From assembly GCA_964484755.1 (NCBI GenBank), contig CAZAGH010000002.1, positions 24,783-88,782 of the forward strand: a stretch of DNA of 64,000 nt. The letters run 5' to 3'. The stretch is from an uncultured Melioribacter sp. Lineage in GTDB: Bacteria > Bacteroidota > Ignavibacteria > Kapaibacteriales > Kapaibacteriaceae. Position 1 is the stretch's first letter. Each line of letters opens with the position of its first letter. A program made the position numbers and the translations under genes. The notes below the pieces were generated by a model that saw only the letters and a program-made list of their open reading frames with translations, made no database searches and was not told the origin of the DNA. This document shows positions 5,135 to 59,374 of this stretch, piece by piece.

Positions 5135-5456
5135 TATAAACCCACCCGTCGGATTCCAAAACCTCATATGTCTTAAGGGCGCTGTTACCGGTGTCTCGGC
5201 GTCCGGTTCTTACATCGTAGCGCCAACCATGTAGGGGGCATGTCACGATACCTTCCTCGATATGCCCGTCGTAAATCACGGGGCTTCGTTTGTGCGGACA
5301 GACGTTGGAAACGCAGTAAATGACTCCATCGATGCGGAAGAGCGCCAGATCATGCTCGATGTCCACATCAACACGTTTGCCATGTCGCTCTGAAACCTCG
5401 ACTGATCTGCAGATTCGCGTCCACTCCCTACCCTGTCGAACTATGACCTCGAACAT
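5121..5456 (-). CDS. Rieske [2Fe-2S] domain protein (small-subunit NirD-like ferredoxin)
   Basis: CPHKRSPV ... CPLHGWRY, i.e. the CxH-(n)-CxxH Rieske ligand pattern, in a 111-aa protein. Confidence 0.7.
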   Translation of the reverse strand: MFEVIVRQGREWTRICRSVEVSERHGKRVDVDIEHDLALFRIDGVIYCVSNVCPHKRSPVIYDGHIEEGIVTCPLHGWRYDVRTGRRDTGNSALKTYEVLESDGWVYIILQ

Positions 5457-6404: not shown

Positions 6405-8555
6405 ATGGGTGCTATAACGAAGATTCGGCAGATTAGTCCGTATTTCCTTGCAGTCATTGCGACACTGTTCATTGTGTTCATGGTTGTCCAGGATTCTAGT
6501 TGCACGAACATGCGCAGCGCGCGCAACAGTGGTGCAACCATGGTGGTAGCCGAGGTTAACGGCGAACCAATTTCTGTGGGTGACTTTGAAGCACGTGTAA
6601 AGGAAGTGATCGAAGGCCAACGCAAGCAGAACCCAGACCAGGAGATCGACGACGAGGTTCTTCGTCAGCAGGTCTTCGACGAGATGGTCAATGAGGTCCT
6701 ACGTCGCCAAGAAGCAGAAAAGATGGGCCTCGTGGTCACTCCGCAGCAGATCATCGACGTCTTGCTCGTAAATCCACCCGAACAGTTTCAGTTCGGTAAG
6801 GATACTGCCGGACGATTTGATCCAAAGATGCAGTGGCAGCTTGTTACCAATCCAGAAAGCATGAAGGAACTGCTTGAGCGCAACGGTCTCACCGTTGAAA
6901 AGTGGAAAGAGATGCTCCTGCAGACAGAAGACTATTTGCGTAGCCAGATGCTCCAGCAGGCAATTGCATCGGCTGTTGGCACTGCAGCAAGCACGCCATC
7001 GTTCGCAGTTGGCAAACGACAGTTTGTTCGTGAGAACAGCTCAGCTGATATTGAGTATATCGCTCTTTCGAGCAGCCGCGTTCGTGATGCAGACGTTAAC
7101 GTAACGGATGCAGACATCGCCGCCTACTACGAAAAGAACAAGGAGTTCTACAAGCAGCGTCCAGGCCGTGCGATCAAGTTCATTGCCTTCCCGCCGCTAC
7201 CATCTCGTGACGACACAACCAACGCACTGAAGAAGTCACAGAAGCTTGCAGAGACGTTCGCCAAGTATACCACGCTGGAACAGCGCGATTCTGCATTCAG
7301 TAGCGAAATGGTTACCCTGCGTGGTACAGAGTTCGACTACACGTCACCTTCAGAAATGGACCCGACGGTAGCAACTACCCTAGCCTCCCTTGCACCACGC
7401 GAAGTTTTTGGTCCGCTCAACGTACCTGGAGGCATAGCATACTATCGTCTCGATGGACGCCGCGACGGAGTCAACCCTATCGCACGTGCTTCGCATATTT
7501 TGATCCCATTCGGTGTGAACAAGGATTCAGCCAAGGCAGAAGCAAACTCCGTTTTGGCTAAGGCCAAAAAGGGCGATGACTTTGCTGAACTTGCACGTAC
7601 GTACTCCAAGGATCCAGGATCAGCCCAGCAAGGTGGCGATCTGAACTACTTTGGCAAGGGGCGTATGGTACCTGAATTCGACAGTGCTGTTTTCGCTGCA
7701 TCTGCTGGTTCGATCGTTGGTCCAGTTGAAACGCAGTTCGGCTACCACATTATCAAGGTCGTCGAGAAGCTGTCCGTCGAATACAAGTACTCCGCCATCA
7801 CGATCAAAGCTGGCATCTCAGCTGCGACAAAGCGTGCAATTGCAGCAGCTGCTGAACAAGCTTACCAAGCTCTGCAAAACGGAGAGGCCATTGAAAGCGT
7901 TGCAACGCCTTATGCAAAGAAGTTCTATGCTCAGCTCCAAGAAACACCTGTATTCGGTAACGAAACACCAGTGCTCCAGTCACGTGAGCTAACATCATGG
8001 GCTTTTGAGAACGAAGTTGGTGCGGTTATTCGTCGCGACATCAAATATTACGGCACAGTGATCGCCCAGGTGTCCGACGCCCGCGAAGCAGGTGTTAAGC
8101 CCCTTGCTGACATGAAGGACAAGATCAAGCGCATTCTCACAGAGCGCGCGAAGTTGGCGAAGCTTGAATCTCAGGCGAAGCAAATGGCCTCTGTTGCAGC
8201 GTCACAAGGCCTAGCTGCAGCCCGCGGCGGTGATTCAACTATCACGTTTGCCACGCAGACGGGTGTGAAGGACAACGGCATGATCACGGGTTTTGGTGGA
8301 GAGTATGCTGTAACATCAGCTGCCTTCTCTCAGCCAATTGGATCTGTCGGCAAGGCCATCAAGGGTGAAAATGGTTGGTTCATCATACGTGTGATTAACC
8401 GTACTGATGCCAATGTTGCAGATTATGCAAAGAATCCAACAAGTATCCTCCAGGCGATTTCTCAGCGTGTACGCAACAGTGCTTTTGGAACATGGTTCCA
8501 GAAGGTGCGTGAACGTGCAGAGATCAAGGATAAGCGTTTCAGCTCAGAAGGATAA
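6405..8555 (+). CDS. ppiD: periplasmic chaperone / peptidyl-prolyl isomerase PpiD(SurA)-like
   Basis: 716 aa with an N-terminal TM anchor and a SurA_N-like region. Two parvulin-type rotamase segments (e.g. GGDLNYFGKGRMVPEFDSAVF ... GYHIIKV). GGAGGAG RBS precedes the ATG. Confidence 0.7.
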   Translation: MGAITKIRQISPYFLAVIATLFIVFMVVQDSSCTNMRSARNSGATMVVAEVNGEPISVGDFEARVKEVIEGQRKQNPDQEIDDEVLRQQVFDEMVNEVLRRQEAEKMGLVVTPQQIIDVLLVNPPEQFQFGKDTAGRFDPKMQWQLVTNPESMKELLERNGLTVEKWKEMLLQTEDYLRSQMLQQAIASAVGTAASTPSFAVGKRQFVRENSSADIEYIALSSSRVRDADVNVTDADIAAYYEKNKEFYKQRPGRAIKFIAFPPLPSRDDTTNALKKSQKLAETFAKYTTLEQRDSAFSSEMVTLRGTEFDYTSPSEMDPTVATTLASLAPREVFGPLNVPGGIAYYRLDGRRDGVNPIARASHILIPFGVNKDSAKAEANSVLAKAKKGDDFAELARTYSKDPGSAQQGGDLNYFGKGRMVPEFDSAVFAASAGSIVGPVETQFGYHIIKVVEKLSVEYKYSAITIKAGISAATKRAIAAAAEQAYQALQNGEAIESVATPYAKKFYAQLQETPVFGNETPVLQSRELTSWAFENEVGAVIRRDIKYYGTVIAQVSDAREAGVKPLADMKDKIKRILTERAKLAKLESQAKQMASVAASQGLAAARGGDSTITFATQTGVKDNGMITGFGGEYAVTSAAFSQPIGSVGKAIKGENGWFIIRVINRTDANVADYAKNPTSILQAISQRVRNSAFGTWFQKVRERAEIKDKRFSSEG

Positions 8556-10796: not shown

Positions 10797-11405
10797 TTAC
10801 TCGACAACTGTCGCAGTATTCTGATAGATCAATCGAAACGTAAGATTTATGCGCGGGCCATGTGCCCGCGTTTTTTTTTCTATACCGTGAAGCCAGTGTT
10901 GTTGTGTGGTCCCTTTCATCACGAGAACACTGCCCGAGCTCAGTGGTATGCGCACGGGTGCAATGTCCCGCCGTGTCTTATGCTTGAGCACAAATGTTCT
11001 CGTTTCGCCAAAGCTCATAGATACAATTGTTGGATTCGAACCTAGCTCGGGTTCATCGTCTGCGTGCAACCCCATGCTGTCGCGTTCATCGCGATAGAGA
11101 TTTGCTAACACAGAATTGAATCTTGCATCCGTGATCTCCTCAGCTATCGATCGAAGTTTGAGCAGTGTCGTGGTCCACGGCTTAGCGCAATAGATTCGTT
11201 TGGAGTACATGTACTCTACGCCGTCATCACCTAGGAACTCAAGCAGACGTGGCTGGTACATTGTCTTACCAAACATGGTAATCGTGTCCTGTCTCCATGG
11301 AATCTCTGTGAACAGTGCGTTGAAATAGTCTGTGCTGGAAAGGGGCGATGAGGCCCCCTCAAATAGAAAAATTTCAGCATCGGGTATTGTCAATTGTATC
11401 GACAT
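10797..11405 (-). CDS. alkB: alpha-ketoglutarate/Fe(II)-dependent dioxygenase AlkB (alkylated DNA repair)
   Basis: The 2OG-Fe(II) oxygenase facial triad is present (LHADDE ... HWLHGI), together with the C-terminal RINLTFR motif. The second in-frame Met at 11405 (MSIQLTIPDAEIF) is taken as the start. Confidence 0.8.
   Translation of the reverse strand: MSIQLTIPDAEIFLFEGASSPLSSTDYFNALFTEIPWRQDTITMFGKTMYQPRLLEFLGDDGVEYMYSKRIYCAKPWTTTLLKLRSIAEEITDARFNSVLANLYRDERDSMGLHADDEPELGSNPTIVSMSFGETRTFVLKHKTRRDIAPVRIPLSSGSVLVMKGTTQQHWLHGIEKKTRAHGPRINLTFRLIYQNTATVVE
10851..10880 (+). terminator. rho-independent terminator for the nuoE-like gene, embedded in the 3' coding end of convergent alkB
   Basis: GCGCGGGC-CATGT-GCCCGCGC hairpin followed by T9 on the plus strand. 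On the minus strand the same bases encode ...KKTRAHGPR... of AlkB. Confidence 0.55.
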
Positions 11406-11441
11406 AATGTAAATTGTCCACATCTATTCAGAGGAGTATTC

Positions 11442-12209
11442 ATGCCTACCCGCGTTCAACTTGGAGTGCGCCATCGTCAGATTCGTGAGTCTTTGCTCAA
11501 AATGACCGTCCAAGAATATGCAAAAATGATGGATGTCAAGGTACCTACTGTCTACTCCTGGGAATCGGGCCGTACATCTGTTCCACAGAACGTACTGGCT
11601 ACACTTGAAAAGCGTTACGGTATATCATCGGGGTGGTTATTGACGGGATATGGCACTCCAATGTTGCCATCACATGTCAGTATAGATCCTGCTACTCAAA
11701 CCAAGAAATCCGTCATGGAACGTCTTGAAGAACACATCATGACTATCAAGCAGCTTGTAGACGAGTTGAAGCATCACTCGCCAGAGGTGATCGCCCCTGC
11801 CCGGCGGGAAAAAGGTTCGAATAAACATCGTATACCAATGTTAGCGTTGGGTGTCAGCGCTGGCCTTCCTACGGCTTCTGATGATACTATAGAACGCGAG
11901 ATCGATCTTGCGGACATGTTGCTCGAACATCCAGAGAGCACATACTTCATTCGGGTCGTTGGCGACTCAATGACAGATGCAGGTATCAGCGATGGCGATA
12001 CGCTGATCGTAGACTGCGCTGTGCAGCCTCGGGCTGGTCAGATCGTGATTGCCAAGGTCTACGGTGAGCTCACTGTAAAGCGATACCTTCAGGTCGACGG
12101 CCGTCCAATTCTGCGCGCTGAAAATCGCCGGTACAAAGACATTGCTATCACTGCTGACATGGACTTTACAATCGTAGGCGTCGTCCGGAACTGTATTAAG
12201 AAGCTATAA
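11442..12209 (+). CDS. LexA-like repressor: HTH_XRE DNA-binding domain fused to S24 LexA/UmuD autopeptidase domain
   Basis: N-terminal VQEYAKMMDVKVPTVYSWESGRTSVP is an XRE-type HTH. C-terminal GDSM ... KRY match the S24 Ser/Lys dyad. GAGGAG RBS at 11431-11436 precedes the ATG at 11442. The track ORF start at 11394 is an upstream extension. Confidence 0.75.
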   Translation: MPTRVQLGVRHRQIRESLLKMTVQEYAKMMDVKVPTVYSWESGRTSVPQNVLATLEKRYGISSGWLLTGYGTPMLPSHVSIDPATQTKKSVMERLEEHIMTIKQLVDELKHHSPEVIAPARREKGSNKHRIPMLALGVSAGLPTASDDTIEREIDLADMLLEHPESTYFIRVVGDSMTDAGISDGDTLIVDCAVQPRAGQIVIAKVYGELTVKRYLQVDGRPILRAENRRYKDIAITADMDFTIVGVVRNCIKKL

Positions 12210-12214
12210 TAACT

Positions 12215-12236
12215 CTACATTTTGTATAATTGCATC
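12215..12236 (+). promoter_or_regulatory. conserved element CTACATTTTGTATAATTG immediately 5' of the imuB-like start codon
   Basis: 17 of 18 positions match the element at the dnaE2 start (16886..16903). See findings. Confidence 0.5.
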
Positions 12237-13220
12237 ATGCTTTTAGCGATGCAATTATACGGCACGTATACAGACGCGTATTGGGATGCACTTGTAGATC
12301 GTATACACATCTGCACGCCTCTGATCAGTCTACCCTGTAGAGGCAGATTATACTGTGGACTTGACGACATACATGGTCTACGTGAACTTGTCTTATCACA
12401 TAAACTCCAGGCAGCTGTAGCCAAAACACGTCATGATGCTCTGCTGCAATCATGCCAAGCGACAAAGGGCCGAATTGATGCACATGATGGTTCGGATGAT
12501 GTACCGGTTTCGGTCCTGAAACGTATTATCGAGCTTGAGATCCAAGATCATGATATCGAGCGTCTTACCCTTTTCGGACTCTACACCATAGGTAGCCTCA
12601 GATCACTCACAGAACGCCACCTCTCAGCTCAGTTTGGTCATCGTGGAACAAAGCTCTACCAATTCCTGCACGAATACGATGATTCGCCACTGCCGTTCTA
12701 CATACCAGCACCATCAATAATTGTAGCTGAACGCTATGATGATGCACAGCAAGAGCCAGGGCCAATTTTTGAGTCATTAGAGCGCTCTGCACATCGTGCA
12801 TGCACATTACTTGGAACGCGATCTACTTGGCGTATAGAAGTCGCATGCCTTGATAAGGCAGATCAGCCTATGGCAGTGCGCGAACGTATTCTTCGATCAG
12901 GCTGCAATCTAGTCCAACAACTACTCACACACCTGCATGCATTGACACGCGACCTTCTGAAGCAGTCAAGACAGTGGTGGGGATTGCGCGTACGATTGGC
13001 TTCATTGGCACTGCCTGTAGCAGAACAAACTGCCCTGTTCTTGCCAGTAAAAGGTGCTCAAGATGTAGCACGTGAAATGATTCCACGCTACGGGCATGTC
13101 ATGAGAAAGATCACGATTCATAACCCATGGTCTATCATTCCAGAGGAGTATGCAAGCTGCACACCTATGATGCAGAGGACTATTGAAGGATCCTCAAGTT
13201 CAGGAGAGGAGCAGCAATGA
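12237..13220 (+). CDS. imuB: ImuB-like Y-family polymerase homolog (catalytically degenerate)
   Basis: The N-terminus MLLAMQLYGTYTDAYWDAL aligns with the ImuB LWLALHLP...LEAL entry. The DMDxFF catalytic Asp/Glu motif of active DinB/UmuC is absent. The thumb/HhH region ERLTLFGLYTIGSLRSLTERHLSAQFG is conserved. It is positioned with lexA-like and dnaE2. At 328 aa it is shorter than typical ImuB. Confidence 0.55.
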   Translation: MLLAMQLYGTYTDAYWDALVDRIHICTPLISLPCRGRLYCGLDDIHGLRELVLSHKLQAAVAKTRHDALLQSCQATKGRIDAHDGSDDVPVSVLKRIIELEIQDHDIERLTLFGLYTIGSLRSLTERHLSAQFGHRGTKLYQFLHEYDDSPLPFYIPAPSIIVAERYDDAQQEPGPIFESLERSAHRACTLLGTRSTWRIEVACLDKADQPMAVRERILRSGCNLVQQLLTHLHALTRDLLKQSRQWWGLRVRLASLALPVAEQTALFLPVKGAQDVAREMIPRYGHVMRKITIHNPWSIIPEEYASCTPMMQRTIEGSSSSGEEQQ

Positions 13221-13453
13221 AAAGTATTCATGAGCCCATAGACGTTGCACAGCAACAACAAACACCGTACATGATCTGTTGGCGTGGGGGGACGTACGCT
13301 GTCGAGCGCATCATTGATTCATGGACTAGTCGCGGACCATGGTGGGGCAACGACGAGATCCGGGGCTACGTACTACTGATCACCAGTTCAGGGGTGATGG
13401 AGATCTATCACAGCAATATTCGCGGATGGATGCTTTCTCGAATGTATGACTAA
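13217..13453 (+). CDS. 78-aa hypothetical protein, translationally coupled to the imuB-like gene
   Basis: The ATG overlaps the imuB TGA as ATGA. Trp-rich (ICWRGG ... GPWWGNDE ... RGWML). No recognisable family. Confidence 0.4.
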   Translation: MKSIHEPIDVAQQQQTPYMICWRGGTYAVERIIDSWTSRGPWWGNDEIRGYVLLITSSGVMEIYHSNIRGWMLSRMYD

Positions 13454-13468
13454 GCTCGATGCAGCTGA

Positions 13469-15955
13469 TCACGATGAATACTTCATACTCACCATGTTGG
13501 CCATGAGCTTCATCGCACCAACAACTCCTACAGGGAGCTGACGAAACAGTGACAAGGATGTGTAAATAAAGTTACCCTTGCCATATCGCGTGTGCAGTAT
13601 GGTTCCTCGCTGCGGCATCTCACCTGTATCATGCATTTCGAGCAACTCAGAGTATCTGGCATCGTATGGACCTGGATTGTAGACTGAACGCTCCTGAACC
13701 CATCCAGCGAAATCTGATGTCGTAATACGATTCGGATACTGCAAGAGCGGATGCATTGGAAGTAAAATGGAAACCTCGGCATCTTCTTCGGTAACACGAT
13801 TCCGCGATATCGTGAGTGGATATGGGGCTATATCAGTAGTACTGAGATCCTGTAATGTGTTGTATTGCATCACGAGTGTGCCTCCCTGCTCTACATACCT
13901 GAGCAATGATGGCATCAGATACTTCATACTCTTACGAGTGTTGATGACACGTATACCGAGCACGAGAGCATCATACGAGAGCAGCTCGGTAGTACGCAAC
14001 AGCTGGTCATCCGTGATTTCATCAACAACTACACCAAGACCACGTAAGAATTCCGGCGTTGACTCTCCAGCACCTGACAGGTAGGCAACTTTCTTTGCTG
14101 CAACCTTGATTGGTTCACTGATCACACGAACGGCAGCAGGTTGCAAATACTGCAACGTTGGAATGTGGTCGTAACTGATTGTAACAACCGTCCTATCGTG
14201 GATAACAGACCCTATCTGAAGCCCTACGCGTAAATCGGTCGTATACGACGTCGACACATCGATTGAAACAAGCGTATCAGTCTGCGCTCGCAGGCGTATT
14301 CCATCAAGCCGAGCAAGAGTACGCTCACCATCCTGAACAAGAAGCGAAGCCGATTCGACAGTACCATAGGCACGTATTCGTACAGAAATCGGTGCCTTGC
14401 CTGATGTCTGATAGACAACTGCCCTTGTAGGCTCGATGCTCACCACCGGTACTATGCGCAGTTCTTCAATGACATCGCCCTTGAGCGGGTCGAGCTTTTT
14501 GAAACTAACAGGCAGCGACAACACGAACGTCTCATAGCCAATGGTCATGATTACTGGAACTTCAAGAACCGGTGCACTAATGGAAGTTCCTAGTAAGAAC
14601 TCTGAAGAAAGACGAAACAGGCCGCCGGCGGGATCTTGTTCGAGCCAGTATGGCTGGCTAACTGCTGTACCATAGGGTACGGTAAATCGGGCCTCTGCGA
14701 TATGGGTAGAATCGTTCACACATGAGAAACCATCGATGATTGCACCACCAGGTAGGGATATCGGCAAAATGGATACAGACCTTCCGGCACGTGTTGTAAA
14801 TCGAATGGTAGCTCTGGCAGTGTCACCACTCGTCATGATCGGCATTGGTACTGATACATCCGCGGTAAGTCCGATGCAAGACGTGATAATCTTGTCGATC
14901 TCCTTGATCTTCAGCTGGTTCCAAAAAGGATCCCTTACTTCGTTGATCTTTCCGCGTATGTTTAGAAGTTTATCAAGTGATCGATGTGGCGCAAGCATAT
15001 CATAGGTTGCGATCACCGAGTCAATTGCTGCACCGATTGAGGTTGCACCAATACGATTCCACGTTGTATCGATACCGTCAAACAAACTGCGTTGCGGTGC
15101 ATCACCAACAAGGGTCTCAAAATACTCCGGCTGAACACCTGGTGTACTTGGCGTCCCAGCCCCCTGACTTCTATGAATGCTGCGACTGATTCCAGCCAGT
15201 TCGCCATATCCCATGCCAAGCAACGGATCGTATTGTCCAACGTCGATCTTGAACATTCCTGGTTTGATGGTGCTGCGATTACCGAAGCGAAATGCATTGA
15301 AGAGCAATCTTTTAGGCTTCCACGGCTCTTCTCCGGTAACTATGGGATTGGCACGCAGAATAGAATCGACACGGTCTTTGCTTTCCTTTGAGAGTGTCGA
15401 TACTCCATAACAATAGCGCACGGCCTCTTCGGTGATGATTGCTGAAGCACTGTGCTGACCATGCCCTGCCATGCTATCCTTAGGGAAACGGCATATCACG
15501 ACGTCGGGCCGAAACTCTCGAATCACGCGCACAACATCTGCGATGAGAATCACACTATCCCAGTGTTGAAAGGTCTCTTTCGGATTCTTTGAAAACCCAA
15601 AATCAAGTGCACGTGAAAAGAACTGTTCTGCACCATCAAGCTTGCGTGCAGCAAGCAACTCATGTGTACGTATGAGTCCAAGCGCAGCCCCCTGCTCTGA
15701 ACCGATAATGTTCTGTCCTCCATCTCCACGTGTGAGTGAGAGATATCCTGTCCTGATGTTACGTCCATTTGCTAGCCACGAGAGAAGTCGTGTATTCTCA
15801 TCATCGGGATGAGCTGCAACGTAGAGCACCGATGTCATTGATCGAAGCTGTTGCAGCTTACCATAAATTCTGGATGACGGTAAGGGGCGTATCTGCTGAG
15901 CAGATACCGTTACGACGCAGCAAACGCCAATCAGTGCAGTGAGCAGTGTGTGCAT
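13469..15955 (-). CDS. large PIG-L/LmbE-family deacetylase (Bacteroidetes ~830-aa type)
   Basis: Signal peptide, then VLYVAAHPDDENTRLLSWL (PIG-L AHPDDE motif). 828 aa. Confidence 0.65.
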   Translation of the reverse strand: MHTLLTALIGVCCVVTVSAQQIRPLPSSRIYGKLQQLRSMTSVLYVAAHPDDENTRLLSWLANGRNIRTGYLSLTRGDGGQNIIGSEQGAALGLIRTHELLAARKLDGAEQFFSRALDFGFSKNPKETFQHWDSVILIADVVRVIREFRPDVVICRFPKDSMAGHGQHSASAIITEEAVRYCYGVSTLSKESKDRVDSILRANPIVTGEEPWKPKRLLFNAFRFGNRSTIKPGMFKIDVGQYDPLLGMGYGELAGISRSIHRSQGAGTPSTPGVQPEYFETLVGDAPQRSLFDGIDTTWNRIGATSIGAAIDSVIATYDMLAPHRSLDKLLNIRGKINEVRDPFWNQLKIKEIDKIITSCIGLTADVSVPMPIMTSGDTARATIRFTTRAGRSVSILPISLPGGAIIDGFSCVNDSTHIAEARFTVPYGTAVSQPYWLEQDPAGGLFRLSSEFLLGTSISAPVLEVPVIMTIGYETFVLSLPVSFKKLDPLKGDVIEELRIVPVVSIEPTRAVVYQTSGKAPISVRIRAYGTVESASLLVQDGERTLARLDGIRLRAQTDTLVSIDVSTSYTTDLRVGLQIGSVIHDRTVVTISYDHIPTLQYLQPAAVRVISEPIKVAAKKVAYLSGAGESTPEFLRGLGVVVDEITDDQLLRTTELLSYDALVLGIRVINTRKSMKYLMPSLLRYVEQGGTLVMQYNTLQDLSTTDIAPYPLTISRNRVTEEDAEVSILLPMHPLLQYPNRITTSDFAGWVQERSVYNPGPYDARYSELLEMHDTGEMPQRGTILHTRYGKGNFIYTSLSLFRQLPVGVVGAMKLMANMVSMKYSS

Positions 15956-15974
15956 AGGTAGTGTTTTCGGTGAC

Positions 15975-16811
15975 TTACTTCAATGTCTTGAGCAGATCGT
16001 TGGCATACTTTGTGTACTCGGCTTCCGCTGATGTACCCTTTGCCAATTCGATAGTCTTCTGTGCCGCCTCGCGTGCAACATCAACATTGTTGAGTTTAGC
16101 TGCGATGCGCGCGCGAAGCAACTGGATCCAATAAGCCTTAGGGTTCTTCTCTGCGGCCTTAGTAGCGTATTCAAGAGCTTTGTCAAGTTGCTGATTCGTT
16201 TCATAGAGATACGATGCAGCTGGTTGATATGGGATTGTTGGATTGTTGATAGCTTTATCGATGGAAGTGAGCAGACGTTCCTGGTTACTGATCGCTACCG
16301 GGATTGATACATGCGTCTTTTCCCATGCAAGGTCGATGGTGCATGATGAGAATGCGATTGAACCGATTGAGATAGTAAAGGTCTCTACTGCTGACTCTAG
16401 TGCAACTGGTCGAACTTTTAGGCGGACAACATCATCTTTTGTGTCGTATCCAGTGGCTCCCCAATTACCGGTGTTCTTGTTGATGATTACTTCCCATTCC
16501 GACTTATCAGGTATTGTGTAGAGCGAATACGATCCAGCCTTGATATTCACACCGCCAATACGAACATCTTCACCAAAGGTGACCTTTGTGGCCGAGTTTG
16601 CTCCTGTGCGCCAGACAGTACCAAATGGAACAACATCTCCGAAGATTGTTCGACCACGCATCGAAGGCCTGCTATACACGATCTCGATCTTAGAAGTTGA
16701 TATGTCTTGAATGATCGTTGCGTTGGGACTCAGCGCTGGTAGTTTGAGTTCTTGTGCCGCAGTGACCTGAACGGCAAAAACAACGCAGAGAAGAAGATAT
16801 ACGTACTTCAT
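15975..16811 (-). CDS. DUF2911-like secreted protein with C-terminal TPR-like helical region
   Basis: Signal peptide; the 278-aa size and beta-rich region fit the DUF2911 family. Weak family-level call. Confidence 0.4.
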   Translation of the reverse strand: MKYVYLLLCVVFAVQVTAAQELKLPALSPNATIIQDISTSKIEIVYSRPSMRGRTIFGDVVPFGTVWRTGANSATKVTFGEDVRIGGVNIKAGSYSLYTIPDKSEWEVIINKNTGNWGATGYDTKDDVVRLKVRPVALESAVETFTISIGSIAFSSCTIDLAWEKTHVSIPVAISNQERLLTSIDKAINNPTIPYQPAASYLYETNQQLDKALEYATKAAEKNPKAYWIQLLRARIAAKLNNVDVAREAAQKTIELAKGTSAEAEYTKYANDLLKTLK

Positions 16812-16885
16812 GGGGCTTGCTTTATGGATGATGAATAGTGGCGTAGAAACGATGCGAAACTACGAGAAGTTTCGCGCATAGGTCT

Positions 16886-16910
16886 CTACGTTTTGTATAT
16901 TGTTTATACA
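16886..16910 (+). promoter_or_regulatory. conserved element CTACGTTTTGTATATTG plus perfect palindrome TGTATA-TTGTT-TATACA overlapping the dnaE2 ATG
   Basis: Palindrome at 16894..16910. Its last A is the A of the start codon. It shares CTACRTTTTGTATAWTTG with the imuB upstream element. Confidence 0.55.
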
Positions 16911-19900
16911 TGCAGTTTGGATCCCTACATACACGATCTCACTTTTCCTTTCTTGATGGTGCGTCATCTCCTGAAAGCATGGCCATAACAGCTGCACAGT
17001 TGGGTCACACCGCAATTGTGCTGACCGATGTAATGGGGGTGTATGGTGCTGTGCGATTGCAGAGAGCATGCAAGGCCGTTGGAATTCGTGCTCTTATGGG
17101 CGCTGATTTCATCATCCATAATGTTACCATAAGTGCAATAGCTCGAAACGCCGAAGGGTATCGTCAGATATGTAGTCTTGTTACTACTCTACGCGATGGC
17201 GGTCTGATTGAAGAGAATATCCAAAGAAGCCCCCTTACTGAATGCGTGATCATCATCCACGGATGCAATGTCGATCTAGATTTGCTTAGCAGGGTCTGCT
17301 CGATCCTACGCGGAGGACGCGAATGCTATCTTGGTATAGAGCACGACGGCAGACCCTGGGCCCTTCGAAGGGCACGCCGGGTTGTAAACCTGGCAGAATC
17401 TCTCAAGATCCCATGCGTGATTGCACAAGATGTTCGTTATGCTACTCGTGATGAATACGCAGCACACGATCTGATGGTATGCATTCGTGAAGGTATCACC
17501 ATTCATGAACCTCACCCACTGCGACCTGTCAACGATCGACAATGTCTACGCTCTGAGCAGGAAGTCCGAGAACTGCTCCCGTTTCCTGAGGCATTTGAAA
17601 ACGTAGACCTAATTCTTTCAGCATGCACATTTGACATACTGCCTGACAGAGTTACTCCCCCATCAGCTCGCATCCCCGAGCGTACTACTGCCAAAGAAGT
17701 GCTACGGGAACTTGCCATAAAGGGACTTGAGCGGCGTTATCAGAGTTGCGACGCATACACAATAGAGCGAGCATGGGCGCAGCTGGAACATGAACTTCGC
17801 GTACTAGATGAACTGGAGCTTTCGGATTTCTTTCTTGTAGTGAATGAGGTTGTAAGTGAGGCACGACGCCGCGGCATACGTTGTAGCGGACGTGGTTCTG
17901 CAGCAAACTCTATCGTAGCCTATGTTCTCAACATCACTGGCGTATGCCCTATTCGACATCATCTGTTGTTTGAGCGCTTCTTGCATAGGGGGCGCAAAGG
18001 AACGCCAGATATCGATGTTGATTTCGACAGTGATCGGCGCTCAGAGATCATTGCATGGATGGAAGAACGCTTTGGTCTGGCTCAGACAGCAATGACAGCT
18101 ACAATGATCATGTACCGGATCCGCATGGCGATCCGTGATGTAGCCAAAGCACTTGGCTTTCCAATGGAGACTGTTCGCAGTCTTTCCAAGAGTGTGCCCT
18201 CATGGACCAATCAACCAGTGGAATCATACCGTGATGCCTTAGCCTCTATCATAGGTCATATTCCGATGCTCAATATACTACTTCGCGGTGTTGAGCTTCT
18301 CATCGATCACCCACGACACCTAGGACAACACTCAGGAGGAATGGTCTTATCAAGCAAGCCACTAGAGATGCTTACACCAGTACAGCGATCTTCTAATGGT
18401 GTTGCTGTTGTTCAATTCGACAAAGACGACATCGAAGCTATGGGGCTTGTAAAGTTTGACGTGCTGGGACTTCGTATGCTCGCCTGCATCAGTGAAGCCG
18501 TTGAGCTTCTTGAAGTTTATCAAGGCATTGTTATCGACATAGATGAAGTACCGCTGGACGACCCTGATACATTTCAGCTTATTCGCAGTGGCAAGACACT
18601 TGGGATCTTTCAAATTGAATCGCAGGGGCAAATGCATCTGCTTGCTAAACATCAACCCGAGTGTTTCGATGATCTCATTACGGAAGTAGCACTGTTCAGA
18701 CCTGGTCCACTCCAAGGTGGAATGGTACATCCATACATCGCAAGACGAACAGGCAAGGCACCTGTCGAATATGTTCATCCCGACCTCGAACCGCTTTTAT
18801 CAGACACGTTAGGCATTGTTCTGTTCCAAGAGCAGGTGCTAGAGATCGCGCACAGGTTTGCTGGCATGCCGCTCGACGAAGCCGATGATTTTCGGTCACT
18901 TGTCTCAAAGAACAGAGACCGAGTGCTTATGGCTGCAATGAAGGATACATTCATCAATGGAGCTATGTCAAGGGGCGTAGATCATGCATCAGCCGAGCGC
19001 GTGTATGATATTGTATCACACTTTGTAGGGTATGGCTTCTGTAGATCTCATGCAGCGGCATTTGCAAAGATCGTCTATCAAAGTGCGTGGCTCAAGGCCC
19101 ATCATCCTGCTGCATACATGGCGGCGTTCATGCAGCATAGGCCTGGGATGTATAATCTTATGACACTGGAAGAAGAATCACGTCGATTTGGTGTTGATGT
19201 TCTTCTGCCGGACATACGTTACTCACACATCCGCTATACGATAGAGCAACACCAGAATCAGCGATGGTGCATACGCAAGCCCCTTACTTCGATTCGTGAT
19301 GTTAGCGAAGATGTAGCTCGTGATATCATCATCGAACGAGCAAAGTCAACCTTTGTAAGCGTCGAGGATTTCGTCCTCCGATTACCAGGTATTTCTCGAG
19401 ATGTTCTTGAATCAATTGCTCTTGCAGGCGCACTGACACATCTTGATGAAGATGTCCGACGCACGATATGGATTATAGGGGTTGTACGCCAGCGGCAACA
19501 AACATCTACCACAGGGAGCCTCTTTACCACAGCACATATTCATGAGACAGAGATACCGGAGCTTCCAGAGCTCAGGGCACAGGAACGCTTAGCCTATGAC
19601 TACATTACACACGGAGCAGCACGTGTGCATCCAATGACACTCTTTCGACGCCTTATGACTACGATGGAGATACGTTCGATTGAGACAGTACACAGAATGC
19701 CAATAGAAAAACCCATGGTTGTTGTCACGGCCGGTATTGTGATGCTTCGCCAGGCGCCACCTACTGCACGAGGGATGCTGTTCGTTACGATCGAGGATGA
19801 GACAGGCTTTTTGCAGTGCGTAGTGCCCCCAAATGTGCGTCAAGCATATGCTACAGAGCTACGGTCGGCAGCGCTAATGCTAAAAGGAACCGTAACTGGT

Positions 19901-20035
19901 ATCGGCTCATGGAGGAGCATTATGGTGCGTGAGGTTGTTGTGCTAAATAACATCATTGGTGGATACCACGGACACCTTTCCTATGCTGGTGGACGTGATA
20001 CGCTAGAAGTTGGCAGCGTAGTTAGTTTTGCATGA
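16910..20035 (+). CDS. dnaE2: error-prone DNA polymerase DnaE2 (ImuC)
   Basis: N-terminal PHP domain (LHTRSHFSFLDGASSPESM), Pol III alpha core, and C-terminal OB fold. 1041 aa, and it ends without the tau/beta-binding tail, as in DnaE2 rather than replicative DnaE. Confidence 0.85.
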   Translation: MQFGSLHTRSHFSFLDGASSPESMAITAAQLGHTAIVLTDVMGVYGAVRLQRACKAVGIRALMGADFIIHNVTISAIARNAEGYRQICSLVTTLRDGGLIEENIQRSPLTECVIIIHGCNVDLDLLSRVCSILRGGRECYLGIEHDGRPWALRRARRVVNLAESLKIPCVIAQDVRYATRDEYAAHDLMVCIREGITIHEPHPLRPVNDRQCLRSEQEVRELLPFPEAFENVDLILSACTFDILPDRVTPPSARIPERTTAKEVLRELAIKGLERRYQSCDAYTIERAWAQLEHELRVLDELELSDFFLVVNEVVSEARRRGIRCSGRGSAANSIVAYVLNITGVCPIRHHLLFERFLHRGRKGTPDIDVDFDSDRRSEIIAWMEERFGLAQTAMTATMIMYRIRMAIRDVAKALGFPMETVRSLSKSVPSWTNQPVESYRDALASIIGHIPMLNILLRGVELLIDHPRHLGQHSGGMVLSSKPLEMLTPVQRSSNGVAVVQFDKDDIEAMGLVKFDVLGLRMLACISEAVELLEVYQGIVIDIDEVPLDDPDTFQLIRSGKTLGIFQIESQGQMHLLAKHQPECFDDLITEVALFRPGPLQGGMVHPYIARRTGKAPVEYVHPDLEPLLSDTLGIVLFQEQVLEIAHRFAGMPLDEADDFRSLVSKNRDRVLMAAMKDTFINGAMSRGVDHASAERVYDIVSHFVGYGFCRSHAAAFAKIVYQSAWLKAHHPAAYMAAFMQHRPGMYNLMTLEEESRRFGVDVLLPDIRYSHIRYTIEQHQNQRWCIRKPLTSIRDVSEDVARDIIIERAKSTFVSVEDFVLRLPGISRDVLESIALAGALTHLDEDVRRTIWIIGVVRQRQQTSTTGSLFTTAHIHETEIPELPELRAQERLAYDYITHGAARVHPMTLFRRLMTTMEIRSIETVHRMPIEKPMVVVTAGIVMLRQAPPTARGMLFVTIEDETGFLQCVVPPNVRQAYATELRSAALMLKGTVTGIGSWRSIMVREVVVLNNIIGGYHGHLSYAGGRDTLEVGSVVSFA

Positions 20036-24227: not shown

Positions 24228-24860
24228 CTATTTCAGGATGTGTCCTGTCTGAGCACACCAAAAGAGCAGGTCGACTTCATCCATATCGATTCCAATTTCC
24301 TGACAATACGATTGGAATGCCCGCTCCACTGCATGGTACTTGCTAGAAGTAGACACTGATGGCACGTCTTGATACACTCCACACCTGACAAGATTTGTCA
24401 GCAGGTGCCGGTCGATGATGGCAAGACCACGTCTGCCGATGTTTCGTAGAAAATGACTAGCCTCCTTGAGGCCGAAACCATTGACACGCTCCGCAAGTTG
24501 ATTACGCAATTCATAGATCGACATTGACTGCGCGGCAATCATCGCGTGTAACTCTTGCCAATGCTCGCGTGCCGCATGGAGCCGAGCATGCTTTGTGTTG
24601 TGAAATCGGATGTAGCATGCCTGATCGCGCAGCACGTGTAGCACATCCTGGCCCGTTCGAAGGAAATCAATGCTCTGCAGCTGCTGTTGCACGGCAAAGG
24701 CATGAACCGCGCTCGACTGAGGCGTGCATAGACAGAAGCATAGCTCGTAGAACCATTGTTCCTCTGGAACAGCCGCAAACTCAGACAATCTCTGACGTAT
24801 CGCTTGCTGCTGTTCACGGTAGAGATGCTCAAGCGTCTCTGGCAAGCGTTGCGCGTTCAC
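24228..24860 (-). CDS. ogg: 8-oxoguanine DNA glycosylase, Ogg2-type (HhH-GPD)
   Basis: ~210 aa. HhH-GPD elements GLKEASHFLRNIG and AIIDRHL (catalytic Asp). The size matches short archaeal/bacterial Ogg. Confidence 0.7.
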   Translation of the reverse strand: MNAQRLPETLEHLYREQQQAIRQRLSEFAAVPEEQWFYELCFCLCTPQSSAVHAFAVQQQLQSIDFLRTGQDVLHVLRDQACYIRFHNTKHARLHAAREHWQELHAMIAAQSMSIYELRNQLAERVNGFGLKEASHFLRNIGRRGLAIIDRHLLTNLVRCGVYQDVPSVSTSSKYHAVERAFQSYCQEIGIDMDEVDLLFWCAQTGHILK

Positions 24861-28713: not shown

Positions 28714-29129
28714 TCAACATGATCCTTTACAATGTCGAGAAAGAACCTTGGTGGACGTACTGGCTTGAATTCATTGGCCGTCACAAAAGCATGACGCGTC
28801 CAACCAGTGACAAGTGTATCAACACCCCGTGTTATGGCATAGGTAATCGTCATTCGAGCCGAGATCTCCGTATCAATTGTCGCATGCAACGTCAGCAAAT
28901 CATCATAGCGCGCGGGCATGATGTATTCAGCATGCGATGTCAACACCGGAAGCATGTATCCCGAGGATTCCAACTCCGCGTATGGCAATCCGCGAGAGCG
29001 CAGCAGCTCCGTACGGGCGATCTCAAAGAGCCGGAGATAGTTACCATGATAAACAACACCCATCTTATCGGTGTCACTATACCGAACCCGGTACTGGCAG
29101 GCATGTTCGATGACCTTGTCCAATGTCAA
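28710..29129 (-). CDS. acyl-CoA thioesterase, YbgC/4HBT family
   Basis: YRVRYSDTDKMGVVYHGNYLRLFE carries the 4HBT catalytic Asp and HGG-like motif. 139 aa. Confidence 0.7.
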   Translation of the reverse strand: MTLDKVIEHACQYRVRYSDTDKMGVVYHGNYLRLFEIARTELLRSRGLPYAELESSGYMLPVLTSHAEYIMPARYDDLLTLHATIDTEISARMTITYAITRGVDTLVTGWTRHAFVTANEFKPVRPPRFFLDIVKDHVE

Positions 29130-30124
29130 TCACCTTGAGGATGCAACGAGAGCATCATTTCCAACAAGCGCTCGAGTTCCTCTAGAGAGTAAAAATCGAT
29201 CTCAAATGATCCAGCTTCGCTGGACTTCATCTTGACCTTGACCTGTGTACCGAAAAGGTGACGCAGAGAGTCTTCAATGGTGCTAAGTGTTGATGACGAG
29301 GTGTCTGCCTTCTGGGCACGCGGCGCAGAAGGTTGTGCCGGGGTCTGCGCGACGGGTACGATATCCCCATTGCGGGCCACTTCCTTGTGACCCAATTCCA
29401 TGTCTTTAACGAGAGCCTCTGTCTTGCGGACTGAGAGTTCCTTGCGGACGACCTCTCGAAGCACGGCAAGCTGTGCCCTCTCTGTAGACAGCGCAAGCAG
29501 AGCACGAGCGTGCCCCATAGAAATGCGCTTGTTGCGAAGAGATGCCTGGGCATCATCAGGCAACTTTAAGAGACGAAGGAAATTCGCAACCGTGCTGCGA
29601 TCCTTCCCTACCTTAACGGCAACATCTTCCTGTTTGAGCCCACACTCCTCGATCAACCGCTGATAGCCAATGGCGATCTCGAGTGGATTGAGATCTTCAC
29701 GTTGGACATTCTCAACGAGGGCTATCTCCAGCATCTGAGCATCCGAACCTACGTTGATCACGAATGCGGGGATGGTAGTCTTTCCCGCCATTTGCGATGC
29801 ACGCAGTCGACGTTCGCCAGAGATCAACTCGTATGCATCAAAATGCGGTCGCACCGTAATAGGCGTGATAACGCCATGTACAGCAATCGACTGCGCTAGC
29901 TCTTCTAATGCCTGTTGATCAAAGTGATGTCGGGGCTGCACCGGGTTCATCGAGATCTTGTCAATATCGATGAAGGAGACTCCCGATGATCCCTCGGGGA
30001 TATCGGCAAGGGGCTGCTGCGATGTACCCTCAGGACGTATCAATTCCTTTGGTATCAGAGCACCTATACCCTTACCAAGCCCCATTCCCTGTTTCACGCT
30101 TTTGTTCCTTACTGAATTACGCAA
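29126..30124 (-). CDS. parB: chromosome partitioning protein ParB
   Basis: ParB box [12 protein letters not shown] and an HTH region. 332 aa. Overlaps the parA stop by 8 nt. Confidence 0.85.
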
Positions 30125-30899
30125 CAGCTACCGGCATGCCATTCTTGGCAAGAATCTCAGTAGCAAGTGCCAAATAGTTTTGTGCGCCCATGCTCGACGC
30201 ATCGTATAACAGGACTGGCTTACCGTGACTTGGTGCCTCAGAGAGTCGGACGTTTCGTGTGATCACGGTTCGACAAGCCTTATCCTCAAAGTGCCGGCGT
30301 ACCTCGTCGACAACCTGGTTGCTGAGTCTTAGACGTGAATCATACATTGTCAGGAGTACACCTTCGATTTCAAGATCTGGATTCGTCGTGCGACGAACAA
30401 TTGAAATCGTGTTAAGGAGCTGCCCCAACCCCTCAAGGGCGTAGAATTCACATTGTACTGGAATAAGCACACTATCTGCGGCTGTAAGCGAGTTTAGTGT
30501 TAGCAGACCGAGTGACGGCGGACAATCAATGATGATGTAGTCATATGTTTCCTTGAGGCTAGCCAGCGCACTCTTGAGTAGTTGCTCACGTTGTGGAAGC
30601 TCTACTAGCTCGATCTCCGCACCAACAAGATTAATGTGAGAAGGCACGATGTCAAGAAAGGGCATGGCCGAAGTAACGACAACATCTTGAATTGGCAGGT
30701 GGTTAACCAACACTTCGTAAACGGTCTTATCAAGTTGCGCAGTTTCAACGCCAAATCCGTGCGAGGCATTCGCTTGTGGGTCTATGTCGACAAGCAGCGT
30801 ACGCTGTTCAGTAGCCGCAAGTGATGCGGCGAGATTGACCGACGTCGTGGTCTTGCCTACCCCACCTTTTTGGTTCGCAACGGCAATGATTTTGCCCAT
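30117..30899 (-). CDS. parA: chromosome partitioning ATPase ParA/Soj
   Basis: Deviant Walker [12 protein letters not shown]. The internal Met ([13 protein letters not shown]) at 30899 is taken as the start; the track ORF is extended to 30959. Confidence 0.9.
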
Positions 30900-30990
30900 A
30901 TACGTATTGCTCCGATGTGCCACTGTGGCATGGTGATTCGTGTTGTTTCTGCAAGGCAAAGCTACGAAGCCACGGCAACTTCAAGAAGTG

Positions 30991-40559: not shown

Positions 40560-40561
40560 TA

Positions 40562-41668
40562 ATGCAGGTACATCGCACACACTCTCATCCTGAACAACGT
40601 TCTTTAACTCAGCGCGAGACCTCGATCCTCCAAGCGGTCGTGCACCTGTTCATCCTGCATGGAGTGCCCGTTGGGTCGAGGAATGTCTCAAAGTACCTAG
40701 AACGTACGCTGCCCCTCAGTCCGGCAACGGTACGTAACAGTATGATGGATCTGGAAGAGATGGGATACATTATGCATCCGCACACATCTGCTGGACGCAT
40801 TCCTACGGATAAGGGTTACCGTTTCTACGTTGATTCCCTAGCTCCAACGCCCCCTGAGATCAATGCGGCACATCTTCATCTACCAGAATTCTCCGGGGCA
40901 TCACACGAGAGTATCATCAAGGATGCCTCACGGGTGCTCAGCTCGCTGAGTCGCCATCTTGCGTTGGTTCAGATCCCACAGTTACAGAGTGCGCTTGTGC
41001 GACGGGTCGAGCTTGTTCGCCTCTCATCAGAGCGCTTGGTCGTTATCATTGATCTGGACAGCGACACTATTCGCACGATCAGTTTGGAGACAACAACACC
41101 TATCGATTATGAAATGATTGATAGTCTGTCGCGGTTTGTAAATGAAAAACTTGCTGGACGACCTCTCCACGTCATAGACTCTGTCATTTCAGAGTCCGTC
41201 GATCAATTGACGTTTGCAGACCCATCATTGCTTCGGCTGTTTATTGATCAGCTCGGTAACATCACCCGCGAACACTCCTCGGGTAGCATTCATGTAAGTG
41301 GTACCACAAATCTGATAGACCAACCGGAAAGTGCCTCTCCCGACCGCTTACGCAGTGTTATTGAACTAATTGAAAATGAGGATGTGATCGTTCACCTTCT
41401 CGGCAGTGCATCAACGGCAGATGGTGTCTCAGTCCGCATCGGCAATGAGATCACGGACGCCAATCTTGCAGACTACTCACTTATCGCCACCACATATCGC
41501 GCTGGCACTGCACAGGGATCACTTGGCATCATCGGTCCGCGTCGAATGGACTATGGTCGCATGATCTCAATCGTGCAGATGATGTCCAGCGTATTGACGA
41601 GTACATTCAATTCACCTACACCAGATGGCTCGGAAAGTCGTCTATTGACCTCGATTAGAAAGCGTTAG
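40562..41668 (+). CDS. hrcA: heat-inducible transcription repressor HrcA
   Basis: N-terminal winged HTH (RETSILQAVVHLFILHGVPVGSRNVSK) and the HrcA C-domain. An internal ATG at 40562 avoids overlap with the upstream gene. grpE and dnaJ follow. Confidence 0.8.
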   Translation: MQVHRTHSHPEQRSLTQRETSILQAVVHLFILHGVPVGSRNVSKYLERTLPLSPATVRNSMMDLEEMGYIMHPHTSAGRIPTDKGYRFYVDSLAPTPPEINAAHLHLPEFSGASHESIIKDASRVLSSLSRHLALVQIPQLQSALVRRVELVRLSSERLVVIIDLDSDTIRTISLETTTPIDYEMIDSLSRFVNEKLAGRPLHVIDSVISESVDQLTFADPSLLRLFIDQLGNITREHSSGSIHVSGTTNLIDQPESASPDRLRSVIELIENEDVIVHLLGSASTADGVSVRIGNEITDANLADYSLIATTYRAGTAQGSLGIIGPRRMDYGRMISIVQMMSSVLTSTFNSPTPDGSESRLLTSIRKR

Positions 41669-41672
41669 AACA

Positions 41673-42197
41673 ATGGAACACACAACACAACAAGAAGACA
41701 ATCACCTGGAGCAAGACCAATCTCAGCAGGAGACAACGGACCTCCATGCCGAGCTTGCCCAGTGGAAGGAGCTTGCGATACGTCGGTTAGCCGAAGTAGA
41801 GAACATCCGCCGTCGCACCAACCTTGAAAAGCAAGAATTGCTCATGCATGCTGCTCAGCATACGATCACAAAAATGCTCCCAATCCTTGATGATCTCCAT
41901 GCTGCCGTCGAGGCTTCGCGCACAACACGCGATGCGGAGTCACTGATACAGGGCATCGAGATGATCTACACAAAGACCGTCAAGATCTTTGAAGAGTCTG
42001 GCGTGCAGGCCATAGAGGCGGCATCTGGGGAGCAGTTTGATGTAGAACGCCACGAAGCTCTCATGCACACACCGTCGGAGCATCCCGAAGGCTCTGTTAT
42101 TCAAAACGTACAGCGTGGATACCTGCTGCACGATAAAGTATTGCGACATGCTAAGGTCATCACATCAGCCGGGTCTGCGGCACAGAAGGGCGAGTAA
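41673..42197 (+). CDS. grpE: nucleotide exchange factor GrpE
   Basis: Acidic N-terminus, a coiled coil ([21 protein letters not shown]), and a C-terminal beta domain. 174 aa. Confidence 0.85.
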
Positions 42198-59292: not shown

Positions 59293-59374
59293 AAGAGCAA
59301 ATCTACGGCCTTTGCGCGGAGCATGAACGCCAGTGCTATATTGTACGGGGCTTATTATCACATGGAGAGATTCA

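Follow-up and report, generated by a model that had tools for sequence, protein, structure and literature searches.

The window analysed here is a 64,000-nucleotide stretch of DNA from an uncultured Melioribacter sp. (contig CAZAGH010000002.1), in which near-identical copies of an 18-nt element lie just before the start codons of two genes of a putative mutagenesis cassette. The first gene of the cassette is a lexA-like repressor gene (11442–12209, plus strand), whose product matches the Pfam families HTH_3 (E 2.1e-9) and Peptidase_S24 (E 1.5e-27). It is followed on the same strand by an imuY/imuB-like gene (12237–13220), hereafter imuY, which may encode a degenerate homologue of the Y-family polymerases, and by a gene for a DUF6504 protein of 78 amino acids (13217–13453, plus strand; 29.2 bits against a Pfam cut-off of 24.2), which is present in all cassette loci. 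The dnaE2-like error-prone polymerase gene lies further downstream (16910–20035, plus strand). Its product contains the Pfam domains DNA_pol3_alpha, finger, PHP and HHH_6, and its top NCBIfam match is an error-prone DNA polymerase model (832 bits). Domain searches identify the two opposite-strand genes that lie between DUF6504 and dnaE2 as a PIG-L-domain gene and a DUF2911/TPR gene.

The original prediction, made by reading the DNA alone, named the two polymerase genes imuB-like and dnaE2. The profile matches bear out the second name. The Y-family identity of the first is weak only: the protein has no significant Pfam family and all of its Y-family matches are sub-threshold. They include NCBIfam DNA polymerase IV models (E 8e-5, far below the cut-off, and 1e-3), IMS_HHH_1 (E 0.03) and REV1 (E 0.85). 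The position of the gene is conserved in 34 related loci. Judged from its size and position, the DUF6504 protein may be the positional equivalent of ImuB-C. No mention of DUF6504 was found in the literature searched.

Both copies of the element were found by direct reading where they had been placed, 4 and 7 nt before the two ATGs. The first, CTACATTTTGTATAATTG, occupies 12215–12232 and is followed by CATC and the imuY ATG at 12237; the second, CTACGTTTTGTATATTG, occupies 16886–16902 and is followed by TTTATAC and the dnaE2 ATG at 16910. The two share 16 identical columns, with one A/G substitution and one indel of 1 nt. The near-identity and the indel of the earlier comparison stand, and its count of 17 matches in 18 positions is one too many. 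The 14-mer common to both elements, CTACRTTTTGTATA, occurs exactly twice in the window, where about 0.001 exact matches are expected by rough arithmetic with uniform base composition. With up to two mismatches there are 3 matches against 0.49 expected.

Comparison with related loci separates the parts of this element. A scan of species-representative genomes gave 34 full-length homologues of the regulator (56–95% protein identity), nearly all of them from metagenome-assembled genomes labelled Kapaibacterium, Ignavibacteria or Bacteroidota; Kapaibacterium is placed in the phylum Bacteroidota in the NCBI taxonomy, and the window itself derives from a Kapaibacterium-like member of this phylum. 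The pattern xxAC-N5-GTAx is present at −43 to −65 in the lexA-like promoters of all 35 loci, the window included. The functional core of the element appears from these alignments to be a dyad, CTAC-N5-GTA(G/T), lying in the first 13 bases of the 18-mer. In the window it reads CTAC-ATTTT-GTAT at imuY (12215–12227, putative operator O1) and CTAC-GTTTT-GTAT at dnaE2 (16886–16898), and the lexA-like promoter carries a degenerate autoregulatory version, CGAC-ATAAT-GTAA (11400–11412), which overlaps the −10 element and scores 9.7 bits with a palindromic matrix. The arms are constant across sites and the spacers vary (ATTTT, AATTT, GATTC, ATGTT and GTTTT), a pattern that would be expected of the operator of a dimeric repressor.

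The sequences that follow the regulator stop codon can be aligned in three subgroups of relatives, and in each the element stands directly before the imuY-like ATG. The subgroup consensus sequences are xTACRTTTYGTATAATTGCAYYATG, TTATACRTTTTGTATAATYGCxxATG and TTGACATTTYGTAGAATYGxxxATG. Group A consists of the window and its six closest relatives (L001, L002, L003, L004, L005 and L024); the L004 sequence ends before dnaE2. The search of relatives that had been suggested as a check thus recovers the core dyad at the lexA–imuY junction in groups A to C, in the lexA-like promoters and at those dnaE2 genes that are split from the cassette.

In the distant relatives L028–L034 the regulator promoter contains two CTAC-N5-GTAG copies. 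A second copy lies 20–24 bp downstream of the first in most of L026–L034 (for example TTCTACAATTTGTAGG), and in L028–L034 it is downstream of the −10 element, with a right arm that is not −10-like (GTAGGA, GTAGAC). The dyad is therefore conserved for a reason other than promoter function. This bears on the proposal that the element is a duplicated core promoter only, copied when dnaE2 was separated and bound by no repressor. Such a promoter would account for TATAAT or TATATT at a leaderless distance from both ATGs, and the conservation of the RTTTT spacer and of the TTG that follows the hexamer is what promoter features would show. It would not account for the left half CTAC, which is conserved and mirrors the right half although it falls in the sigma-70 spacer, where no specific sequence is needed, nor for second copies that lack −10-like bases. 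In addition, a matrix trained on the autoregulatory sites of relatives recovers the elements of the window. We regard duplication of a bare promoter as distinctly improbable.

The promoter of the lexA-like gene, TTGTCA-N17-TAAATT (11387–11415, plus strand), has 9 of 12 matches in a consensus scan and its position is conserved in relatives. The regulator promoters of L026–L034 have the form TTGnnT-N17-TA(G/T)A(A/T)T, which is of the sigma-70 type, and the left arm of the dyad lies in the promoter spacer and the right arm over the −10 element. Both elements of the window contain a −10 hexamer on the plus strand that can be read directly. At imuY this is TATAAT (12225–12230), 6 nt before the ATG, and in all groups the hexamer, TATAAT or TAGAAT, is 5–6 nt from the ATG. 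At dnaE2 it is TATATT (16896–16901), 8 nt before the ATG, a spacing that is invariant in six group A sequences. No Shine-Dalgarno sequence is present at imuY in any group or at dnaE2. With gaps of 6 and 8 nt between hexamer and ATG and no Shine-Dalgarno sequences, transcription is expected to begin at the start codon or no more than 2 nt from it, and the imuY and dnaE2 transcripts are predicted to be leaderless or nearly so. A leaderless transcript had been put forward as one of two explanations of the geometry, the other being an operator that occludes the start; the spacing supports the former, which complements the operator reading. The remark that the elements do not fit the Bacteroidetes sigma-A geometry was also right. 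The TAnnTTTG promoter was rejected as it is off by one base in both elements and relatives show TTGnnT-N17-TAGAAT, and for these reasons the sigma-70-type reading is preferred. A further dyad, TGTCAA-N5-TTGACA, precedes imuY in group C and the lexA-like gene in group A. It was rejected as an operator because its half-sites face the opposite way; it arises because the TTGTCA −35 element adjoins a TTGACA-like left half-site.

The specificity of the pattern was assessed with a weight matrix of 17 positions derived from 13 autoregulatory sites of L025–L034 only, with which both strands of the window (128 kb) were scanned. The best match is the element at imuY (12213–12229, 24.4 bits) and the second is the element at dnaE2 (16884–16900, 22.8 bits), the maximum being 26.6 bits. 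The third match scores only 15.5 bits; it (42097–42113), like the fourth (7870–7886), falls within an open reading frame of the opposite strand, and both were discounted as chance hits. The 34 related loci, 592 kb in total, yield 72 matches of at least 13 bits. All but three of these (69/72) fall at one of three expected places, namely the lexA-like promoter, the lexA–imuY junction (including a nearby site within imuY) and the region upstream of a split dnaE2.

The position of the sites follows the organisation of the cassette. In tblastn searches with the proteins of the window, the usual layout in the 34 relatives is a contiguous operon of regulator, Y-family-like gene, DUF6504 and dnaE2, without imuA. 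To judge from gene order, the ancestral cassette was one operon comprising the lexA-like, imuY-like, DUF6504 and dnaE2 genes. In group A the operon is interrupted ahead of dnaE2 by the inserted PIG-L and DUF2911 genes, which are read from the opposite strand, and gene order is otherwise kept. In L018 four paralogous genes on the same strand (12092–16187), encoding proteins of about 310 amino acids with signal-peptide-like N-termini, lie between DUF6504 and dnaE2. The L018 split of the cassette, with its different insertion, is independent of the split in group A. All six group A sequences in which dnaE2 is visible (the window, L001, L002, L003, L005 and L024) have the pattern xTAC-GTTTT-GTATATT-N8-ATG, and in L018 the site TACATTTTGTATATT is found about 80 nt before dnaE2. 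In the roughly 25 loci where dnaE2 directly follows DUF6504 there is no site before dnaE2, and its ATG is within a few bases of the upstream stop codon. L031 and L032 have a longer gap before dnaE2 and still no site. Sites are found only at split-off dnaE2 genes, and therefore the module accompanies dnaE2 exactly where the gene is no longer co-transcribed with the operon; in group A dnaE2 would have needed its own copy because of the two opposite-strand genes inserted before it.

At dnaE2 the element runs into a second inverted repeat, TGTATA-TTGTT-TATACA (16894–16910), which is present as described and whose last base is the A of the ATG. The original prediction favoured this repeat as the operator, acting over the start codon. 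It is a perfect 6-bp inverted repeat and is also found in L003. It is not conserved in the other close relatives, where TATACA is replaced by TCTACA (L001, L002 and L005) or TCGACA (L024), and it has no counterpart at imuY or at any lexA-like promoter. Comparison of relatives largely refutes a TGTATA-N5-TATACA operator, which we find scarcely credible.

A separate hairpin, GCGAAACT-ACGAGA-AGTTTCGC (16854–16875), is found in the interval from the divergent DUF2911 gene to dnaE2 and ends 10 nt short of the dnaE2 operator. The hairpin has an 8-bp stem, is recognisable in 6/6 group A sequences and shows a compensatory change in L005 (GCTAAACT/AGTTTAGC). A scan marks it as terminator-like on the minus strand. 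The pattern GAAAC-N8-GTTTC taken from this hairpin was tried as a second regulon motif and rejected, as it does not recur in the window.

The start of imuY is also palindromic. In group A GTATAATTGCATC (12224–12236), which comprises the right arm of the operator, the −10 hexamer and the discriminator, pairs with GATGCAATTATAC (12248–12260) in the coding sequence. This perfect 13-bp inverted repeat has the ATG in its 11-nt loop and is part of a palindrome that spans 12216–12268. In group B the complementary arm is upstream instead (GCAGTTATAC-N5-GTATAATTGC). Nucleotide conservation around 12216–12268 exceeds the level predicted from protein identity. Inside imuY, 42 bp from O1, is a candidate second operator, O2 (TATAC-GGCAC-GTATA, 12256–12270), a perfect 5-bp dyad with a spacer of five bases. 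It is conserved in group A and scores 13.7 bits in L002, L003, L004 and L024.

These features raise the question of whether the element acts mainly as the arm of an RNA hairpin that controls translation or termination. As RNA the imuY palindrome has a predicted energy of −19.7 kcal/mol (z −4.2), two of its pairs show compensatory changes among seven close relatives, and the relocated arm of group B looks as if pairing itself is under selection. The covariation comes from few closely related sequences and no Rfam match was found across 11000–17200. There is no equivalent conserved hairpin at dnaE2, where the 6-bp repeat is not conserved, and if transcription starts where predicted, the element's own promoter does not transcribe it. 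An effect mainly through RNA is thus very unlikely. The palindrome may instead add a second operator to which repressor binds cooperatively, or form a hairpin that shields imuY from transcripts reading through from the regulator gene. A more elaborate scheme, which we consider unlikely, would make it DNA operator, −10 element and RNA gate at once. In lexA read-through transcripts the hairpin would bury or insulate the imuY start, which would then be usable only on the leaderless mRNA that the internal promoter makes once derepressed, so that the mutasome would be expressed separately from the basal level of repressor; a related possibility is that the UmuD-like repressor, when cleaved, also yields a UmuD'-like accessory subunit in place of the missing ImuA.

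The regulator is a protein of 255 amino acids when read from the ATG at 11442; the listed open reading frame (271 amino acids) begins earlier at a TTG, and HTH_3 spans residues 28–82 of this longer form. When the translation is aligned to UmuD and LexA, the residues associated with self-cleavage are found as Ala140-Gly141 in VSAGLP, Ser176 in GDSM and Lys213 in TVKR. The S24 domain is closest to UmuD, with LexA next (phmmer, 89 bits for UmuD' and 54 bits for LexA). It is 43% identical to UmuD', its best matches in the PDB are UmuD and UmuD' (E ~1e-23), and the protein scores 124.4 bits against the NCBIfam UmuD subfamily NF007621 (cut-off 110). The regulator is not a canonical LexA, as it has an N-terminal HTH_3 and no winged-helix PF01726 N-terminal domain; the TIGR00498 lexA model covers only its C-terminal half (81.6 against a cut-off of 110.95). 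The protein appears to be an independent fusion of an XRE-type helix-turn-helix (HTH) to an S24 domain of the UmuD/LexA type. Full-length homologues in Chlorobium (30% identity, L056 and L061) are without the cassette and without the motif. The distant relatives L026, L028, L029 and L034 have short tandem repeats flanking the regulator gene, including CATTCGGT repeats after its stop codon in L026 and TCACTTG/CTTTTACTTCT repeats upstream of it in L028 and L029.

An alkB-like 2OG-Fe(II) oxygenase gene (10797–11405, minus strand; Pfam 2OG-FeII_Oxy_2, E 3e-38) is divergent from the lexA-like gene, an arrangement kept in 17 relatives. The listed open reading frame extends to 11423. The start codons of the two genes are about 36 bp apart, and the conserved ATG of the alkB-like gene (11405–11403, minus strand) falls within the lexA-like operator, with an identical register in groups A and B. 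Because its ATG falls within the operator of the regulator, the alkB-like gene is possibly co-regulated with the lexA-like gene.

Non-canonical LexA proteins of the Bacteroidetes have been described that combine a PF01381 HTH with a PF00717 S24 domain and have an Ala-Gly bond and Ser and Lys residues (Sanchez-Osuna et al., NAR 2021, PMC8565304). Their operators were shown experimentally to be CTAA-N5-TTAG, GGA-N5-TCC and TTAC-N5-GTAA. These repressors are autoregulated and control error-prone polymerases, including imuB/dinB-like-dnaE2 operons (PMC8565304). The regulator studied here is similar in belonging to the same phylum, in its HTH_3 and S24 domains, and in its Ala-Gly bond and Ser-Lys dyad. 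The predicted sites are also alike in having arms of 3–4 bp and a 5-bp spacer and in lying at the promoters of the regulator itself and of the polymerases. Unlike the proteins of the published clusters, it lacks their C-terminal extension, and its C-terminal domain scores about 0 bits against those of WP_025606010, WP_075324850, WP_012794432 and WP_013622346 (phmmer with C-terminal domains only). This comparison places it outside the CTAA-N5-TTAG and GGA-N5-TCC clusters and suggests that it is not orthologous to them. CTAC-N5-GTAG is absent from the main text and from Table S10 (divergent dyads) of PMC8565304, which leaves the Ignavibacteria and Kapaibacteria uncovered.

The same similarities bear on the suggestion that the dyad is the operator not of the adjacent protein but of an unlinked regulator, such as a canonical LexA with its gene elsewhere, and that the HTH-S24 protein has some other role. 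As its S24 domain is UmuD-like, a UmuD-type accessory role is conceivable. The adjacent protein has a DNA-binding HTH that is significant in Pfam, the presence of the dyad in the own promoter of every copy is a hallmark of autoregulation, and the five-base spacing is that of HTH_3-S24 repressor operators and not of the canonical LexA motifs in PMC8565304. We therefore give little credence to an unlinked regulator.

Repressor genes at the head of mutagenesis operons are known from other bacteria. In Deinococcus the cassette is lexA-imuY-imuB-C-dnaE2, in which ImuB-C has 80 amino acids and lies between imuY and dnaE2, and split cassettes are known (PMC8072749). Pseudomonas and other bacteria have a lexA2-imuA-imuB-dnaE2 cassette (Erill et al. 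2006 as cited in PMC8072749), and ImuB-C as a standalone protein in SOS-linked operons had been reported before (PMC3765255). The cassette described here resembles these in that a repressor gene heads, and is predicted to regulate, an operon with a candidate inactive Y-family homologue, a protein of about 80 amino acids and DnaE2, and it resembles the Deinococcus type in the absence of imuA. Where Deinococcus and Pseudomonas have a canonical winged-helix LexA as the repressor, the cassette studied here has a UmuD-like domain joined to an XRE-type HTH. Also unlike in those cassettes, the split-off dnaE2 has a near-identical copy of the promoter-operator and the genes are apparently leaderless. 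A third parallel is UmuDAb of Acinetobacter, a UmuD-derived S24 repressor that controls error-prone polymerase genes in place of LexA (PMC11332147). UmuDAb has no HTH recognisable by Pfam and depends on the co-repressor DdrR; its operator is 21 bp long, with TTGA/TCAA arms on either side of a GTnAC core (PMC11332147). Both proteins have a UmuD-type S24 domain with an added N-terminal DNA-binding region; the regulator here differs in its clear HTH_3 and its simple dyad with a five-base spacer and no conserved core. No ddrR-like gene was noted beside the cassette, and no search aimed at ddrR homologues was made. Full-text searches of the literature found nothing on SOS regulation in the Ignavibacteria or Kapaibacteria, and nothing linking an XRE-S24 repressor to dnaE2. 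The module is most likely a lineage-specific version of a well-known control system.

We therefore propose, with a probability of roughly 80%, that the shared 18-mer is the promoter-operator module of the adjacent self-cleaving XRE-HTH/S24 repressor and coordinates the two polymerase genes after DNA damage. A repressor dimer would bind CTAC-N5-GTA(G/T) and cover the −10 hexamer; as the right half-site overlaps the −10 element, the bound dimer would occlude RNA polymerase. DNA damage would lead to RecA-stimulated self-cleavage at Ala140-Gly141, after which the DNA-binding domains would lose the affinity that depends on dimerisation, and the imuY and dnaE2 promoters would fire together. The sites are graded, that of the regulator itself being weak (9.7 bits) and those of the polymerase genes being near the consensus. 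In the SOS response of E. coli, where graded site strength is classical, repressor synthesis is maintained and mutagenic functions are tightly controlled. The gradation seen here may fit the same logic.

A number of observations weigh against this proposal. The bare dyad CTACNNNNNGTAG, with one mismatch allowed, shows no enrichment in the window (13 against 12.2 expected), and so the statistical weight rests on the full 14–17 nt pattern, which includes promoter bases. Bare TAC-N5-GTA is found 12 times with 6 expected; both bare dyads are too short to inform and were dropped as stand-alone evidence. The conservation of RTTTT as the spacer at the sites that overlap promoters could reflect promoter constraints. 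The imuY and dnaE2 promoters of the window are without a recognisable −35 element on reading and were not flagged by the consensus scan. The palindromes at the imuY start have arms of 13 bp in group A and 10–11 bp in group B, longer than an HTH dimer needs, and are unexplained by a promoter-operator model. Two repair genes in the window, uvrC (57421–59430) and the 8-oxoguanine glycosylase gene ogg (24228–24860), have no CTAC-N5-GTAG box upstream.

The breadth of the control is a related question. The window also contains parB and parA homologues (29126–30959) and hrcA (40499–41668), which indicate that it is chromosomal. The proteins RecA, SSB and LexA of E. coli were searched against the collected Kapaibacteria DNA with tblastn, which matched the lexA-like S24 domain only and found no recA or ssb. 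An exact scan of metagenomes for TCTACATTTTGTAKA gave at least 120 stretches from unrelated organisms; there was no cassette among the matches listed, and no regulon could be defined from them. Two contigs have similar sites. In one from an unrelated low-GC organism (L133, reverse strand, about 13700–13950), six palindromes of the CTAC-N5-GTAG type, for example TCTACATTTTGTAGA, TTCTACAAATTGTAGAA and ATCTACAACTTGTAGAT, occur within about 230 bp of one intergenic region, which looks like an iteron-like or multi-operator array. In the other (L198, reverse strand, 5317–5351) two tandem copies of TCTACATTTTGTA(T/G)A, set 20 bp apart, directly precede an ATG at the end of the contig, and this may be a related two-operator promoter in another organism.

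The original prediction concluded that the element is the operator of the adjacent repressor, a lineage-specific SOS box. This reading is supported by the dyad in every regulator promoter examined, by the two top-scoring matrix matches and by the sites at split-off dnaE2 genes. In the DNA covered here the box is carried only by the cassette and possibly by the divergent alkB-like gene, and a genome-wide SOS regulon is beyond this evidence. The element may be an operator specific to the cassette, as with LexA2 in Pseudomonas, and not a global SOS box.

The general picture of SOS regulation is unchanged by these findings. They would extend damage-inducible control of error-prone polymerases to an uncultivated, deep-branching lineage of the Bacteroidota, for which a concrete operator, CTAC-N5-GTAG, and a candidate regulator can now be tested; the apparent leaderless starts and the large imuY palindrome offer further points to test. 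If the regulator is indeed an independent fusion, it would be a further case of SOS-type control being re-invented repeatedly with different DNA-binding domains. The two independent splits of the operon, each with a dedicated promoter-operator for dnaE2, show how co-regulation can be preserved after genome rearrangement.

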